A DNA stretch of 64,000 bases from NCBI GenBank assembly GCA_043719805.1, contig JAYSTI010000001.1:215770-279769 (forward strand), given 5' to 3'. Below the pieces are notes generated by a model. The model made no database searches, had not been told where the DNA came from, and saw nothing but the letters and a program-made list of their open reading frames with translations. The position numbers and the translations under genes were made by a program. This document shows positions 33,187-42,967 of the stretch, piece after piece (position 1 is the first letter of the stretch; each line of letters opens with the position of its first letter). This stretch comes from Candidatus Lloydbacteria bacterium. GTDB taxonomy: Bacteria > Patescibacteriota > Minisyncoccia > Phycocordibacterales > UBA6899.

Positions 33187-34119
33187 TTATGCGCGCTTTT
33201 TCATAAACGATATGATTTTTTTTGCGATAAGTTCCGGTGCCATACCGACAGAGCGCAGGAGGTAATCGCGGTCACCCACGAGAGTCACGAAAATATCCGG
33301 AAACCCAAATGCGTGAAATTTTATTGGCGCCAATCCACCTTGCCACAAAATACCGGAAACAATAGACCCCAAACCACCGATGGTGCTGTGCTCTTCAACG
33401 GTAAACACTCCTTTTGCCGTTTTTGCTTTTTCAAGAATAAGATTTTTGTCGATTGGCTTTAGGTTTGGCATGCTAATGACGCAAGTCGACATGCCCGTCT
33501 TCTTTTCAATCTTCACTGTGGCCTCCATTGCGATATCAAGCACATTCCCGGTCGCAATTATAATGATATCCTTCCCTTCTTTTATGACATATCCTCGACC
33601 CGACGCAAAGCGAAATGACGGCTGAGTGTAATCCACGCCCGGACTTTTGCCTAATCGAATATATGCCGGACCCTTGGTGCGGAGCATCGTTTTCGTTGCC
33701 TCACGTGCCTCCCATGAGTGCCCCGGGGAATAAATTGCCATGTTCGGAAGTGCGTTCATAATTGCATAGTCCTCAACGGTATGGTGCGTTACGCCGTGTG
33801 CGGGGTAATTGAACCCGCCTCCCGTACCAACGATCTTTACATCAAGGTTGTCGTAGCAAACGCCGGTGCGTATCTGTTCGTAAGGGCGCATGGTTGCGAA
33901 TGATGCAATAGAATAGGCGATTACTTTTTTCCCCTCAAGCGCAAGTCCTGCCGCCATGCCCACCATGTGCGACTCGGCGATGCCAACATTTATGAACCTA
34001 TCGGGAAACTTTTCCTGAATCGGCTCAAGGGCATTAAAGCCGAGGTCACCCGTCAAGAACATAATGTCCTTATTTTTTTCCATTTCGATAAGCACTTGTT
34101 TGACAAAATCTCGTCTCAT
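33187..34119 (-). CDS. Transketolase C-terminal subunit (pyrimidine-binding plus C-terminal domain)
   Basis: GIAESHMVGMAAGLALEGKKVIAYSIASFATMRPYEQIR ... IVGTGGGFNYPAHGVTHH. Confidence 0.85.
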   Translation of the reverse strand: MRRDFVKQVLIEMEKNKDIMFLTGDLGFNALEPIQEKFPDRFINVGIAESHMVGMAAGLALEGKKVIAYSIASFATMRPYEQIRTGVCYDNLDVKIVGTGGGFNYPAHGVTHHTVEDYAIMNALPNMAIYSPGHSWEAREATKTMLRTKGPAYIRLGKSPGVDYTQPSFRFASGRGYVIKEGKDIIIIATGNVLDIAMEATVKIEKKTGMSTCVISMPNLKPIDKNLILEKAKTAKGVFTVEEHSTIGGLGSIVSGILWQGGLAPIKFHAFGFPDIFVTLVGDRDYLLRSVGMAPELIAKKIISFMKKRA

Positions 34120-34946
34120 GACTTTTTCATTTTATCCCGTGACACGGCAACGTCCTTTGCGTTGGGAACATAATAATGCGCATGGAGCGTGTGTTCGATG
34201 TGAGGAATGCTTTTCCCGGCAATCGTATCGGCAATGACCACCACGGGGACTCTCGATTGTTTCGCCGCACGAAGCACCTTCACGAGCGCCACTGAATCGT
34301 GCCCGTCCGCACGGAGCACCTTCCATCCGAATGCCTCCCACTGCGCACCAAGGTCCTGCTTGTTTGTTAATTTTGTGGCGCCAAATCCCTGGAATTTATT
34401 GTCGTCGATGATTGCGACAATATTTCCAAGCTGGTGATTCCCGGCGAACATGACTGCCTCCCATACCGACCCCTCGTTGCATTCGCCATCACCGATAAGG
34501 ACATACGCCTTGCTCTTTGTTCCTCGGAGCGCGTATGCTATGCCAATCGCGATGGAAAGCCCATGCCCAAGAGAACCGGTCGATGCCTCTACTCCCGCGC
34601 CCGCGCTGCGCGATGGGTGGGTATGAAAATGCCCCCCGTTCACCCGATGACCAAGGAGTTTTTTTAGCGGAAAATATCCACGTAGTGCGAGTGTGGCATA
34701 GTATGCCGCGGCGGCATGACCCTTCGAGAGCACGAAGCGGTCGCGCGAAGAATCATTCGGGCGCTTCGGGTCAATGTTGAGTATGTCAAAATAGAGTACT
34801 GCGAGTATGTCACTCACCGAAAGCGACGAACCCGTCTCACCAGAGCGGCTGCGTTCAGACATCTCTATGACGAGGTGGCGAATGTGGCCCCCGATTGCCC
34901 CAAGCTGCCTCGGATTCATCATCTTATTTTTTATACTTGTCGGCAT
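34116..34946 (-). CDS. Transketolase N-terminal subunit (TPP-binding)
   Basis: LSKGHAAAAYYATLALRGYF ... GSLGHGLSIAIGIAYA ... LIGDGECNEGSVWEA. ATGA overlap with the C-terminal subunit gene. Confidence 0.85.
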   Translation of the reverse strand: MPTSIKNKMMNPRQLGAIGGHIRHLVIEMSERSRSGETGSSLSVSDILAVLYFDILNIDPKRPNDSSRDRFVLSKGHAAAAYYATLALRGYFPLKKLLGHRVNGGHFHTHPSRSAGAGVEASTGSLGHGLSIAIGIAYALRGTKSKAYVLIGDGECNEGSVWEAVMFAGNHQLGNIVAIIDDNKFQGFGATKLTNKQDLGAQWEAFGWKVLRADGHDSVALVKVLRAAKQSRVPVVVIADTIAGKSIPHIEHTLHAHYYVPNAKDVAVSRDKMKKS

Positions 34947-38471: not shown

Positions 38472-40208
38472 CTATAAATTTTTTATCATATACGTTCCCT
38501 CGAGGACATATCCCAGCTTGCGGTAATACTCACGGACGCCGACACCGGAGATAACAGCTATTTTTTTGTATCCCCTTTCCTTGGCGATACGTTCTGCTTC
38601 CGCGAGAAGCCTTCGCCCGAAACCGACGTGCTGGCTTTGACTGCCGTCGCCGCCCACGCGCGTATGCCTCCCGTACGTGTGCAACTCGCGGATGAGTGCC
38701 GTGCCGCGAAGCACCGGCAGCACTGCGTCATCGCCATGATTATCCGGTAGACGAAGCCGCGTGAACGATACGAGCTTTCGCGCTGCTAAATCCTCGAAAC
38801 TCAAAAATTGTTCTTCGCCCGTTTTGGTTCGGTATGTGATGTTCGATAACGTAAAATCATCCGGATTAACCTCCCCCTCGCGTATCTCTCGACAGCGAAT
38901 GCATTTGCACTGCCAGCCATTTTTTTTCATGTCTTCGTCCATAGCCTGACGAAGATTCGAGACGTGACTTCCCGCCATGATGTACGTGGCCGGAATGTCA
39001 CGTATAACGCGTAAAATGCGCACATACGGAGGAACTTGCTGCTTTGCGCCCCGAAGCACGTCTATGAGCTCTGAGTCGGTATATGGCGTAAATCCGCCCG
39101 TTTTCCACGTCTCATACAGCTCGCTATTATCAAGGACCATGCATGGGTAGATCTTGAGCATATCCGGCTGAAAATCCTCACCGGAAAATAGTTCGCCGAA
39201 CATAGAAATGTCCCGAGCGATGGTACTCCCGGGAAGATTCGGCATCATGTGGTACACAATCTTGAATCCGGCGTTACGAAGCAACTCTGACGCACTTTTT
39301 ACGCGTGCGATTTTCATGTCGCGCTTTGTGAGCTTGAGTACGTCATCATCAAGATGCTGCACTCCAATCTCCACCTTCGTCACGCCAAACACGCGGAGTC
39401 GCTCAATTTCAAAATCAGTAATGTAGTCGGGGCGCGTCTCGATGGAGAGACCGATAATGCGCGATACTGCGCGTTCGTTCTCGTCCTGGAGCTTGAGGAG
39501 ATACGCAAGCCGGCCGCGCCCGTCCTGCTTTGCGGGATCGGGGTCTTCATATACTTCGGTGCGCGAGTCATTTCCCGTCCCGTAATCATTGCACGCACGA
39601 TAGCATCCGATCAAAAACTCCTCCTGATAAACTGGATGATAAAAACTCCACGTGCCTCCGATCACGATCATTTCGATCTTGTCGATGGGATGTCCGTTCT
39701 GCTCGAGCGCCTTCAGTCGGCTGGTGATCTGCATGTACGGGTCAAAGTCATTCGCGAGTGCACGTGCCGCAGCGGGCTCCTTGGCCAGATAGCTTTTGGG
39801 CATCGACACGTCGGTCGGACAATACGTGCACCGACCGGGGCACGCGAACGGCTTCGTGAGGAGCGACACGACGGCAACACCGGAATTCGATTTCGTCTTT
39901 ATTTTCCGCATCGCCATTTCCGCATCGATGCTGACTTCTTCGACGCCCTCTTTGACGAGCGCGCGATAAAGCGCAAGCACCTCGGATTTTGTCGGCATTT
40001 GAATGCTTCCATCCTGTTCATTTTTGACATTTCGGGATTCTCCCGTCTTCGTATAACTGTCGCCACTCTGTCGCATTTCACGAAGGCGCGCCGAAAGTAC
40101 CGCGTCTTTGACGATGCGTTTCTTGAGCTTTTCGACATCCAGATCAGTTTTGATATTTGCGAATAGCATGAATTCCATTACACTAGCAAAAAAATATACA
40201 AAACGCAC
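38472..40208 (-). CDS. ELP3-family radical-SAM/GNAT protein (Elongator Elp3 / tRNA U34 acetyltransferase-like)
   Basis: Radical-SAM CxxxCxxC cluster in FACPGRCTYCP. C-terminal GNAT (GFGRRLLAEAERIAKERGYKKIAV). 578 aa. Probable start at the internal Met MPTKSEV. Confidence 0.75.
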   Translation of the reverse strand: MRFVYFFASVMEFMLFANIKTDLDVEKLKKRIVKDAVLSARLREMRQSGDSYTKTGESRNVKNEQDGSIQMPTKSEVLALYRALVKEGVEEVSIDAEMAMRKIKTKSNSGVAVVSLLTKPFACPGRCTYCPTDVSMPKSYLAKEPAAARALANDFDPYMQITSRLKALEQNGHPIDKIEMIVIGGTWSFYHPVYQEEFLIGCYRACNDYGTGNDSRTEVYEDPDPAKQDGRGRLAYLLKLQDENERAVSRIIGLSIETRPDYITDFEIERLRVFGVTKVEIGVQHLDDDVLKLTKRDMKIARVKSASELLRNAGFKIVYHMMPNLPGSTIARDISMFGELFSGEDFQPDMLKIYPCMVLDNSELYETWKTGGFTPYTDSELIDVLRGAKQQVPPYVRILRVIRDIPATYIMAGSHVSNLRQAMDEDMKKNGWQCKCIRCREIREGEVNPDDFTLSNITYRTKTGEEQFLSFEDLAARKLVSFTRLRLPDNHGDDAVLPVLRGTALIRELHTYGRHTRVGGDGSQSQHVGFGRRLLAEAERIAKERGYKKIAVISGVGVREYYRKLGYVLEGTYMIKNL

Positions 40209-40213
40209 CAGTT

Positions 40214-41212
40214 TCAGTAGCGTGGGCCCATTGAGTTAATTTTTTGCATCAACTTTCTCGCATTCCCGTGTTTCATCATACCCAGATACGACTGCACGGT
40301 TTCCTGTCTACCTGCTTTCATTTTGATATTTTTGATCATCCTCCGCTTCGTCGCCGTACGCAGCACTCGATGGTCCGGGAAATGTACCCAACCGAGAAAA
40401 TCGACACCCGAGGCAAGCGTGCTAATACTCACCTTGTTGGGATGGAGCGCGAGGTGCAATCGAGACGAAAGAAATTTCTCTATGTTGGGTAATGGCTCAA
40501 TAAGTTCGTATCTGTCATTGCTCATAAATACGAAGTCGTCGGCGTAGCGTATGTAGTATTTCTGTCCAAGCTCGTGCTTCACAAATTGGTCAAATGCATT
40601 CATGTAAATATTCACGAGGAGCTGCGAGGTGAGATTGCCGAGTGGTAATCCCTTTCCATGCCCCGTGCTCTCAAAACTTTTTATGACACACTCGAGTAGC
40701 CACATCGTATCGTGATCGGGAACGCGTTGCACTAGGACAGTGAGCATTACTGCATGGTCGATAGACGCGAAGAATTTACGAATATCGCACTTCAGTATCC
40801 AGCATGTGCGTGTGTTGTTTTGGCTCACCTTCTGAGCAAAGGACTGAAAGCGCATGGTTGCCTTAAGTGTGCCCTTATTAACACGGCAAGAGTACGAATC
40901 GGCGATGAAAGTACGGTCAAAGAATGGATAGAGCATGCGGTGAATAGCGTGATGCAGGAGTCTATCGCGCACGGTGGCTTTGTGGATGTTGCGCGGTTTG
41001 GGGTCGTTTATAGAAAATGCTACATACGCACCATGTTGGTACTTCTTTGTGCACAAATCATCATGAAGCACGGAAATGTTGTGCGCAAGATGCAGCGCAA
41101 ACTCCATGACATCTTTTTTGTGCTTCTTGCCACGCACAAACTCACCCCATGCCTCATAAAGATTTTGGAGAGAAACGATGTCATCAAAGCAAGGTGGTGT
41201 ATTGTTCTTCAT
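40214..41212 (-). CDS. DGR reverse transcriptase
   Basis: RT motifs: RNIHKATVRDRLLHHAI (1), SYSCRVNKG (2), ILKCDIRKFFASIDH (A), GLPLGNLTSQLLVNIYMNAFD (B), YIRYADDFVF (C, YADD). About 330 aa. Adjacent Avd-like gene and TR. Start at MKNNTPP (41212) rather than 41257, which would overlap avd. Confidence 0.75.
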   Translation of the reverse strand: MKNNTPPCFDDIVSLQNLYEAWGEFVRGKKHKKDVMEFALHLAHNISVLHDDLCTKKYQHGAYVAFSINDPKPRNIHKATVRDRLLHHAIHRMLYPFFDRTFIADSYSCRVNKGTLKATMRFQSFAQKVSQNNTRTCWILKCDIRKFFASIDHAVMLTVLVQRVPDHDTMWLLECVIKSFESTGHGKGLPLGNLTSQLLVNIYMNAFDQFVKHELGQKYYIRYADDFVFMSNDRYELIEPLPNIEKFLSSRLHLALHPNKVSISTLASGVDFLGWVHFPDHRVLRTATKRRMIKNIKMKAGRQETVQSYLGMMKHGNARKLMQKINSMGPRY

Positions 41213-41229
41213 AATTATAGAATGGCCGC

Positions 41230-41598
41230 ATGACACACACACCGAGAGAGCTCCCATCCGTCATACTTAAACAAAAAGATGCATATGTGCTTTGGCTCAA
41301 ACTGCACAGGGATTTCCCAAAGGTTGAGCGGCTCGGCATTGGACAGAAAATAGAGCAATCATTTCTTGCGGTACTCGAATATACGTTTACCTCAGCTTAT
41401 CTTCCACCCAACCAAAAGATTGTCCTTCTTGGAAAAACTATTTCTCGGCTCGATGTACTCAAATTTTTTCTGCAGCTCGCATGGGAAAGTAAGCTCATCC
41501 CGACGGAAAAATATGCCGATCTTTCGGAGCGACTTGAAGAAATCGGTCGCATGCTCGGCGGATGGCGAAAAGGATTGCTCAACAAAACTCCCACCTGA
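41230..41598 (+). CDS. avd: Four-helix-bundle Avd-like (DGR accessory variability determinant / 23S-IVS protein family)
   Basis: 122 aa. Helical protein resembling Avd/IVS four-helix-bundle proteins (YVLWLKLHRDFPKVERLGIGQKIEQSFLAVLEYTFTSAY ... LDVLKFFLQLAWESKLI). Lies between the RT and the TR. Unusually, divergent from the RT. Confidence 0.6.
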   Translation: MTHTPRELPSVILKQKDAYVLWLKLHRDFPKVERLGIGQKIEQSFLAVLEYTFTSAYLPPNQKIVLLGKTISRLDVLKFFLQLAWESKLIPTEKYADLSERLEEIGRMLGGWRKGLLNKTPT

Positions 41599-41618
41599 CA
41601 TCGGTGGGAGAAATAGTT

Positions 41619-41745
41619 AGTTTCGGAAGCACCACGCGATTGCGGTTCTCGGCATTCCACACGTTGTCGTTCGCGAAGGGGTTCACGTTCACCCTCAATC
41701 TCTCATCGGAGTTCCGGTTCACGTTGGCGACGAAATTTTCTGTGC
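41619..41745 (-). repeat. DGR template repeat (TR)
   Basis: 127 bp, 111 of 127 identical to 42063-42189. On the minus (sense) strand it reads ...ENFVANVNRNSDERLRVNVNPFANDNVWNAENRNRVVLPKL, rich in AAC (Asn) codons. All 16 differences from the VR fall at TR adenines. Confidence 0.85.
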
Positions 41746-42037
41746 GATACACCATCTGTGCCACCACCCATTGAGTACTCTTTGGGCTGTATCGTATCTG
41801 AGACTTCAAAGTCCTCCAGTGTATCGCACCAACTGACTATATTTTTGTTTCTTGAAAATAGATCCACCCTTTTGCGAGACGTATCCGGCAAAATACCCAA
41901 ATATATTTTCACACAATCATCGTGCCCGAGCCATGACCGGAGCACTGCGGATATATTGCCCTATAATGATACACGAGTATACAAAAAACCCTCAGACCTT
42001 GCCAATGCAAGTGTCCAAGGGTCGAAGAGTCAAAGGG

Positions 42038-42703
42038 TCAAGAGCTCTGCGCAGAAGCGTCCAGTTGCGGAAGCACCACGCGATAGCGGTTCTCGGCAAA
42101 CCACACGTTGCCGCTCGCGAAGGGGTACACGTACACCCCCAATCTCTCATCGGAGTACCGGTACACGTCGGCGACGAAAAACTCGGTGCCCACCGTGAAC
42201 GGAAGGAAGGTCGCCCAACCCTTCGGATGGAGCCACTTTGCGTGGTGCTCGACGAATGCAATCACCTGATCTTGGTTGAAAAAATTCGTGACGCCAGCGA
42301 ACATATCCTTGAAGGTGCTGTTGCGCACAAGCTCGTGGACCGCAATGCGCGTTACGCCAGTTGATGCCGACAGTACATCGAGTGCCGTGAAGCCGGAGTC
42401 GATGTGCCCAGGGAAGGTGCGCTTCGCCAGCGCAATCGACCGCAGCCCATCGGTTGCAGGGAGCATCAGCACGTTGTCACCGGAGAGGAGGCGGAGGTGG
42501 GGTTTGGGTGCCACGGGGACAGGTCGCGCATCGAGTCCGAGAAGCTTCAGTATCGCAGGCATGTTGCTGAAATCTGCCATGGGGTTGAGCGCAGCGGCGA
42601 TGATTCCACTGCCGTATGCGCGCTGAATGCTTTCGGCAGTTGCGCCTTGCTCCTCTCCTGTTTCGATGTACTTCTTCACTTGTCCGCCTGTCATTGTGCT
42701 CAT
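42038..42703 (-). CDS. DGR target (variable) protein, C-type-lectin/FGE-like C-terminus expected
   Basis: 221 aa. C-terminal GTEFFVADVYRYSDERLGVYVYPFASGNVWFAENRYRVVLPQL is encoded by the VR. The stop is 25 bp past the VR end. Confidence 0.75.
   Translation of the reverse strand: MSTMTGGQVKKYIETGEEQGATAESIQRAYGSGIIAAALNPMADFSNMPAILKLLGLDARPVPVAPKPHLRLLSGDNVLMLPATDGLRSIALAKRTFPGHIDSGFTALDVLSASTGVTRIAVHELVRNSTFKDMFAGVTNFFNQDQVIAFVEHHAKWLHPKGWATFLPFTVGTEFFVADVYRYSDERLGVYVYPFASGNVWFAENRYRVVLPQLDASAQSS
42063..42189 (-). repeat. DGR variable repeat (VR) at the 3' end of the target gene
   Basis: Aligns gap-free with the TR at an offset of +444. Mismatches only where the TR has A on the sense strand. 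TR Asn codons correspond to Y/D/S/F/G/Q in the VR. Confidence 0.85.
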
Positions 42704-42769
42704 GTGGATTCTCCAGTATGAACGCCGTCTCTTGCGAGGGGCATGTGCTCGTGCCTTACCGAATTTGGT

Positions 42770-42868
42770 TGCGCCAGAGCAGAAAATGGCTGACTCTGTG
42801 GGGGATTTGGAGATTAAAACTCCAAATACCCCGAGTGGAACTTAGTCCGCAATTTTCTGCTCTGGCGC
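42770..42868. repeat. Nested inverted repeat: outer 17-bp perfect arms enclosing an inner 12-bp hairpin
   Basis: Outer arms gcgccagagcagaaaat ... attttctgctctggcgc. Inner hairpin ggggatttggag-attaaaa-ctccaaatacccc. Lies in the intergenic region between the DGR target start and the plus-strand methyltransferase. Confidence 0.5.
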
Positions 42869-42967
42869 ACACTTTATACTCAACGAACATATGTGGAAAT
42901 TTACCATAATTTAGCCATTTTGTCAACTTCTTTTCATGGTTAGCTCAATTACACTAGTGGAACAAGC

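Follow-up and report, generated by a model that had tools for sequence, protein, structure and literature searches.

We analyzed a 64,000-nt window of the Candidatus Lloydbacteria bacterium genome (assembly GCA_043719805.1, contig JAYSTI010000001.1, positions 215,770 to 279,769) and found that it very probably carries an intact chromosomal diversity-generating retroelement (DGR) of the Patescibacteria clade. The element is laid out as a target gene with its variable repeat (VR), a template repeat (TR), avd in reverse orientation, and a reverse transcriptase (RT) gene. The initial annotation of this DNA had proposed a DGR, and we agree with it: RT, Avd, TR, and VR are all present, and the two repeats differ at adenines only. 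Two structured RNAs go with the element, a domain 5' of the TR and a hairpin in the leader of the target mRNA, and we consider it almost certain that both are real. Positions are those of the window, and the coordinates of the features are collected in Table 1.

Between positions 39000 and 44000, we found one family of direct repeats. It consists of the two 127-nt copies that had been reported initially, which we recovered as an ungapped pair with 16 mismatches (87% identity) and whose homology ends abruptly on both sides. On the minus strand, which is the sense strand, each of the 16 mismatches coincides with an adenine of the TR copy (A to T, 9; A to G, 5; A to C, 2). The TR contains 36 adenines and 91 other bases, where 34 and 93 had been counted before. 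Sixteen of these adenines are changed in the VR and none of the 91 other bases is (hypergeometric p = 8.9e-11). The initial annotation had named many non-adenine mismatches as grounds for giving up the DGR, and our recount gave none. This pattern, zero changes at 91 non-adenine positions included, would support recent activity of the DGR.

The second copy forms the 3' end of the target gene, as had been described, and the peptide translations quoted for both copies are correct. We found that 13 of the 16 changes lie in codon position 1 or 2 of the target open reading frame (ORF) and that the TR is rich in AAY codons (8 AAC and 3 AAT). Counted up to residue 207, 20 codons can be recoded, which corresponds to about 7e17 possible peptide variants. 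Neither a further copy of the TR nor a further VR, searched with the A positions masked, was found in the 64-kb window.

The RT carries LGNLTSQ at residue 191 (LPLGNLTSQ, where the Bordetella phage RT, bRT, has IPIGSLTSQ) and YADD at residues 223 to 226. It had been recognized from the start as a DGR reverse transcriptase with a YADD motif, but its length is 332 aa rather than 330 aa. Among solved structures, its best match was 8ub7_A (E = 2e-43; 328 aa), far ahead of group II intron RTs (5e-24 at best) and retron RTs (1e-4 or worse). The RT shares K29, F66, R74, and I76 with 8ub7_A. Since this numbering fits the bRT residues in a preprint (10.1101/2023.10.23.563531), we take the chain to be the Bordetella phage bRT. 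We found no maturase or endonuclease extension on the 332-aa protein.

The Avd-like gene beside the TR was also found as first described: it encodes 122 aa and scores 52 bits against Pfam bAvd, above the cut-off of 40. A PDB sequence search with Avd gave no meaningful match. The start of avd lies 17 nt from the start of the RT gene, in divergent orientation, and its stop lies 20 nt from the end of the TR. With only positions 41213 to 41229 between the two starts, the promoters of avd and of the RT gene must sit within each other's coding sequence. A TATAAT sequence is present 2 nt upstream of the RT ATG.

The reversed, divergent avd had been listed as unusual, a view that the relatives of this element overturn. 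We scanned metagenomes with an RT alignment and obtained more than 320 relatives, of which 80 were kept (58 to 66% identity; groundwater and sediment samples). In all 73 kept relatives with enough upstream DNA, avd is reversed and directly upstream of the RT gene. This is architecture B3, TR-(avd)-RT with avd reversed, which makes up about 90% of the DGRs in the candidate phyla radiation (CPR) (Wu et al. 2018, PMC5758913). Given these 73 relatives and the published layout, the supposedly unusual points are ordinary. The element itself is ordinary, and its layout is the norm of the clade.

We found the same order and strands (target with VR, TR, reversed avd, RT) in L001, L002, and L092, three loci of target relatives, and confirmed adenine-only TR/VR differences in L001 and L002. 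An A-biased TR/VR pair is present in 44 of the related loci, with the VR 400 to 700 nt upstream of the TR. In the protein database, about 8,000 clusters of RT homologues were found at E below 1e-60, and all the named ones are Patescibacteria (Vogelbacteria, Wildermuthbacteria, Brennerbacteria, Moranbacteria, and Parcubacteria). The named homologues of the target are likewise all Patescibacteria/Parcubacteria. DGR clade 2 has been described as restricted to Patescibacteria, cellular, and directed at targets without recognizable domains (Roux et al. 2021, PMC8144416).

We found a promoter-like site in the spacer between the VR and the TR. The equivalent place holds TTGGCA-17-TATACT in L001 and TTGGCA-16-TATGAT in L002. 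The TR appears to be carried on a separate transcript of about 385 nt, with a dedicated promoter and terminator. The 5' domain, which occupies the interval from the spacer promoter to the TR, is conserved across 42 loci; RNAalifold found 37 pairs in it, 33 of them with compensatory changes. Paired cells made up 92.5% of the alignment, compared with 68% after shuffling and 38 to 48% when the partners were slid; the structure was derived from the tested alignment itself, which favors it over the slid controls, and the margins are nonetheless large. Cells changed on both sides numbered 419, compared with 130 in shuffled alignments, and 0 of 500 shuffles matched any of these measures. The fold of the TR with its flanks as a whole (z-score, -0.23) is uninformative alone, and the structure is visible only by comparison.

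Rfam gave no relevant match on the element at E up to 1, RT motifs included, and tRNA and Rfam scans of the whole window found nothing. Because the covarying multi-helix domain sits upstream of the TR, the cis-acting DGR RNA of this clade would lie for the most part on the 5' side of the template, which reverses the Bordetella arrangement. In related contigs, the TR RNA region has often been miscalled as a small minus-strand protein gene (for instance, L001, 3812 to 4075; L002, 1163 to 1396).

A second structured segment begins 8 nt past the TR. Under strict criteria, 32 of 45 loci have a hairpin with a T-run that starts between -15 and +30 nt relative to the TR end, against a background of 4% (p ~ 1e-33). 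This enrichment test was used because the hairpins differ in stem length and were misaligned in MAFFT/RNAalifold. The CUC..GAG base of the stem is conserved and its inner pairs vary, and the flanking UCAUUU and UUUUG are conserved. This hairpin might be a plain intrinsic terminator that separates the convergent transcription units of TR and avd and contributes nothing to RT-Avd recognition or priming. Its match to the terminator consensus on the TR strand, its location 20 nt from the avd stop codon, and its conserved U-run would all suit such a terminator. We nevertheless consider this reading unlikely. The position of the hairpin fits the Avd-binding stem-loop in the Bordetella cryo-EM structure, and the preprint by Handa et al. 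(10.1101/2023.10.23.563531) reports that 207 of 278 Avd-containing DGRs have such a predicted stem-loop downstream of the TR. The conserved stem base and flanks, moreover, suggest sequence-specific recognition. Termination and recognition are not mutually exclusive, and the hairpin could serve in both.

The 3' ends of the repeats had been read as an initiation of mutagenic homing (IMH) site diverging from its IMH* counterpart. This reading was right in spirit. In many loci of the clade, the TR has CGAAAC where the VR has CGCAA(G/C/T), the homology stops at the same point, and about 20 nt of the TR before CGAAAC contain no adenine. The mismatch at VR position 42067 (TR position 41623; A in the TR, C in the VR) recurs in many independent loci, and on this sequence comparison we take it to be a fixed, directional, clade-wide difference of the IMH/IMH* type. 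That mismatch, one of the 16, would then not be a mutagenesis event. Residue Q213 of the target is conserved across its family. We infer that the adenine-free 3' segment may play the role of an IMH.

The target protein gave no match in Pfam or NCBIfam. Word-indexed searches found 6 to 15 relatives and suggested a rare family, a view that we rejected after an exhaustive HMMER search gave 1,841 cluster representatives (E = 1e-10 or better for 1,253). Most members are 200 to 240 aa long. P0016 (476 aa), P0017 (560 aa), P0018, P0019, and P0023 contain two or three tandem copies of the variable domain of about 150 aa. None of 137 family members matched Pfam, and a profile of these 137 sequences found no PDB sequence even at E = 10. 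From the same alignment, AlphaFold2 modeled residues 70 to 210 of the target with a predicted local distance difference test (pLDDT) score of 96 to 98. The modeled domain is alpha/beta, with the VR on its last four strands. Foldseek searches of the model against PDB and BFVD (viral structures) gave no significant match. The model suggests that the domain probably has a highly divergent C-type-lectin-like fold; such a fold was anticipated for CPR targets by Roux et al. 2021 (PMC8144416).

Within the family, the mean column entropy is 2.68 bits at codons with TR adenines and 1.12 bits at other VR codons. Because the hypervariable columns coincide with the TR-adenine codons, the whole family looks like a DGR substrate. 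Its VR motif is FVAxVxRxSDGxLxVxVxRFxxDxVWxAxxRxRVVxPQL. The only other recorded copy of the target protein is identical in sequence. The RT clade also includes DGRs that diversify several different families of small proteins, and ten of these other targets gave no match in Pfam.

The N-terminal module of the target (42506 to 42703, minus strand; residues 1 to 66, GATAESIQRAYGSGIIAAALNP...MPAILKLLGL) is 63 to 81% identical across P0005, P0006, P0009, P0010, and P0012. The proteins that share it have C-terminal variable domains of different subfamilies. In other family members, the N terminus consists of a different module or, in P0004, of a signal-peptide-like segment, which suggests that a docking module is shuffled between proteins. 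Some family members have no RT, avd, or TR within 4 to 6 kb (L003, 5800 to 6453; L004, 6001 to 6579; L005, 1748 to 2434; L007, 1657 to 2307). Their neighbors are housekeeping genes (tRNA synthetases, RecO, DsbA/VKOR, and EPSP synthase), and each is either an orphan or the distant target of a DGR at another site in the genome.

The target gene is preceded by a promoter-like site, and the targets in L001 and L002 have TTGACG-17-TAAAAT at the corresponding upstream position. The leader contains a 26-nt inverted repeat and folds with a z-score of -7.6; its small hairpin lies about 45 to 70 nt before the start codon. In an alignment of 10 loci, the leader shares the core GCC(A/G)UAGC...GCUA(U/C)GGC, 94.7% of cells are paired, and 8 of 19 pairs show double changes, a score that 0 of 500 shuffles reached. 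The related copies are in L001 (2990 to 3140), L002 (115 to 205), L003 (5696 to 5796), L004 (5810 to 5957), L005 (1613 to 1692), L008 (3096 to 3175), L089 (1724 to 1834), L091 (2190 to 2273), and L093 (899 to 978). Several of the targets that bear the leader have no adjacent DGR. A covariance model found the leader once in the window and, in at least 12 further DGR loci, 17 to 69 nt before the predicted start of targets that belong to other sequence families. The leader has no match in Rfam. Candidate roles are mRNA stabilization, an RNase III site, and a protein-binding regulatory leader. The terminator-like hairpin after the target stop codon has a DNA fold z-score of -3.1, and a comparable terminator follows the target in L002.

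From this anatomy and the Bordetella system, we infer the following mechanism. An RNA of about 385 nt would be transcribed from its own promoter in the VR-TR spacer and would end at the hairpin and U-run after the TR. The 215-nt folded 5' domain and the 3' hairpin would be the cis elements recognized by RT-Avd. Synthesis of cDNA would be primed just 5' of the conserved CG(A/C)AAC at the TR 3' end, which would account for that adenine never varying in any VR. The Bordetella template:primer duplex could have a counterpart in pairing between CGAAAC(UC) and the (GA)GUUUUG that follows the hairpin. The RT would misincorporate opposite TR adenines and would stop at the 12-bp helix HB that closes the TR 5' end and corresponds in position to the cPRT-stop duplex of Bordetella. 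The cDNA would then replace the VR, with the adenine-free IMH-like 3' segment directing the exchange. As a result, about 19 codons in the last 40 residues of the target would be recoded. The residues affected would map to the C-terminal strands of its binding domain, which is divergent and probably C-type-lectin-like.

Several points weigh against this account. The promoters and terminators are consensus matches only. Avd scores 60.7 bits against the NCBIfam equivalog model DivGenRetAVD, under its 80-bit cut-off. We found no convincing promoter for the RT gene, whose transcription would be hard to explain if the hairpin after the TR terminates efficiently. The CGAAAC:GUUUUG pairing is of low complexity and shows zero covariation. 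The priming site, the stop helix, and the binding of the hairpin by Avd are analogies with Bordetella. No signal peptide or membrane segment was predicted in the target. After the VR, we found no convincing GC-rich inverted repeat but only a 3- to 4-bp stem, and the nearest strong hairpin is the target-gene terminator, about 40 nt away. A GC-rich inverted repeat downstream of the IMH occurs in only 34% of DGRs, so the feature is not strictly defining.

The element could also be structurally complete but fossil or silenced at present, with a frozen VR whose adenine differences are a record of earlier homing alone. A fixed clade-wide difference accounts for one of the 16 mismatches, and targets persist without a local DGR in L003, L004, L005, and L007, as this explanation would allow. 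In contrast, none of the RT, avd, and target ORFs is disrupted, and the RT retains its catalytic residues and those characteristic of bRT. Drift after inactivation would have added some non-adenine mismatches, whereas there are 0 in 91, and the RNA structure and regulatory signals are conserved. We therefore regard an inactive element as highly improbable and favor the intact DGR.

The idea that the RT belongs to a group II intron, a retron, or a defense-associated system and that the repeat pair is unrelated to it is effectively refuted: its best NCBIfam match is a group II intron RT/maturase and homologues carry such names, but that match (139 bits) is far under the 300-bit cut-off, the Bordetella DGR RT matches much better than any intron or retron RT, the 332-aa protein lacks a maturase or endonuclease domain and has Avd beside it, Rfam detected no intron or retron RNA family, and the adenine-only repeat pair (p ~ 9e-11) recurs in 44 related loci. 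An affinity to intron or retron RTs, or intron RNA, had been named at the outset as evidence that would count against a DGR; we found bRT closest and no Rfam intron family. In public records, the RT homologues P0185, P0187, P0219, P0225, P0252, and others are named "group II intron reverse transcriptase domain-containing," "reverse transcriptase/maturase," or "retron-type RT." Such names on Patescibacteria DGR RTs are a systematic and misleading misannotation.

Table 1. Features of the DGR and its RNAs, in window coordinates
Feature	Position	Strand	Description	Basis
DGR reverse transcriptase gene	40214..41212	-	332 aa from ATG 41212	RVT_1, E 5e-25
avd	41230..41598	+ (opposite to RT)	122 aa	Pfam bAvd PF22296
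Post-TR hairpin	41578..41610 (stem 41610-41588)	-	8 bp, CUCCCACC / GGUGGGAG, 7-nt loop, then UUUUGUU	Terminator scan
Template repeat (TR)	41619..41745	-	36 adenines	Repeat pair
Structured 5' domain of TR RNA	41742..41960	-	About 215 nt	42-locus alignment
Helix HA	41902-41883 / 41880-41862	-		
Helix HB	41829-41818 / 41753-41742	-	12 bp, long-range; 3' strand reaches first TR bases	
Helix HC	41815-41811 / 41804-41800	-		
Helix HD	41787-41780 / 41773-41766	-		
Promoter-like site for separate TR transcript	41976..42005	-	TTGGCA-18-TATACT	Consensus match only
Terminator-like hairpin and T-run after target stop codon	41982..42022	-	15-bp hairpin, then TTTTTT	
DGR target gene	42038..42703	-	221 aa; N-terminal helical module (about 60 aa) and variable-protein domain (about 150 aa)	
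Variable repeat (VR)	42063..42189	-	Codes for residues 172-214 of 221	Repeat pair; family hypervariable columns
IMH-like VR 3' end	42063..42084	-	TR-identical, adenine-free on TR side, ending CCGCAACT (TR: CCGAAACT)	Sequence
Target mRNA leader	42747..42874	-	Long hairpin (basal stem GCGCCAGAGCAGAAA / UUUCUGCUCUGGCGC), then small hairpin CC-AAAUUC-GG	
Target-gene promoter-like site	42898..42926	-	TTGACA-17-TAAATT, TG before -10	Consensus match only

The setting of the element had been described as a glycan-biosynthesis island next to an ELP3-like protein. These genes are real: the neighbors include Elp3, methyltransferases, GT2 and GT4 glycosyltransferases, sugar epimerases, a UDP-glucose dehydrogenase-like gene, and a split transketolase. 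We found no link between these genes and the element and rejected a functional tie to the glycan island or to Elp3, as related DGRs lie elsewhere, in unrelated neighborhoods. A prophage context was also rejected, as the flanks are housekeeping genes and the setting is chromosomal. The elp3 gene (38472 to 40208, minus strand), directly downstream of the RT gene, is full-length with radical SAM and GNAT domains (TIGR01211, 530 bits) and shows no link to the DGR. The transketolase (33187 to 34946, minus strand) is encoded by two genes, one for the N-terminal part and one for the pyrimidine-binding and C-terminal parts, within a sugar-nucleotide/glycosyltransferase cluster.

The element is one more Patescibacteria DGR beside the tens of thousands already catalogued, and what it adds is the RNA structures and the model of the target family. 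It is possible, if somewhat less probable than the opposite, that the clade uses undescribed RNA elements, namely, the TR RNA of about 385 nt with its upstream domain and the target leader hairpin, and that these RNA and protein families are absent from Rfam and Pfam. The target family, with about 1,800 clusters and a fold only remotely lectin-like, is part of that reading. For the TR 5' domain and the leader, the main uncertainty is whether they have already been published. The DGR RNA is well delimited, from its promoter through the 5' domain and the TR to the 3' hairpin, and offers a test of whether the Bordetella priming and stop mechanism also works with the cis elements on the other side of the template. 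The predicted structure would give a confident target model where published surveys had no fold for an abundant CPR target family, and the leader hairpin may help us learn when these organisms express their hypervariable proteins.

We compared the element with known systems. It shares with the B3/clade 2 DGRs of the CPR their gene order, strands, and chromosomal location, as well as a small target with a C-terminal VR and no recognizable domain, and at the level of the element we found no difference. In the CPR DGR surveys compared, Paul et al. 2017 aside, the structured RNA 5' of the TR, the target leader hairpin, and the fold of the target family are undescribed. The variable proteins of C-type-lectin fold (Mtd, TvpA, and the archaeal and Thermus proteins) differ from the target, which has no sequence similarity to any PDB chain, even with the 137-sequence profile, and no Foldseek match; their classical motifs are unlike the target VR motif. 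The Bordetella spacer RNA and the Rfam RT-10 motif (Weinberg et al. 2017, PMC5737381; Handa et al.) resemble this element in having conserved RNA structure on the flanks of the TR, with a stem-loop directly 3' of it and a duplex at its 5' boundary. In contrast to them, the RNA here has no Rfam match and carries the bulk of its structure 5' of the TR.

With the Bordetella phage BPP-1 DGR (mtd-avd-TR-brt), the element shares adenine-specific flow from TR to VR, an Avd partner, and a similar RT (2e-43; K29, F66, R74, I76, xGxxxSQ, and YxDD). In both systems, a stem-loop follows the TR directly on its 3' side, the TR and VR end in an adenine-free, IMH-like stretch, and the TR is rich in AAY codons. 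The element differs from BPP-1 in being chromosomal rather than phage-borne, and its target is not a tail fiber. Here, the TR seems to be transcribed between a promoter and a terminator of its own, and a large structured RNA lies upstream of the TR, whereas Bordetella has a 140-nt downstream spacer. The helix that closes the TR 5' end uses an upstream strand in this element and a downstream strand in Bordetella.

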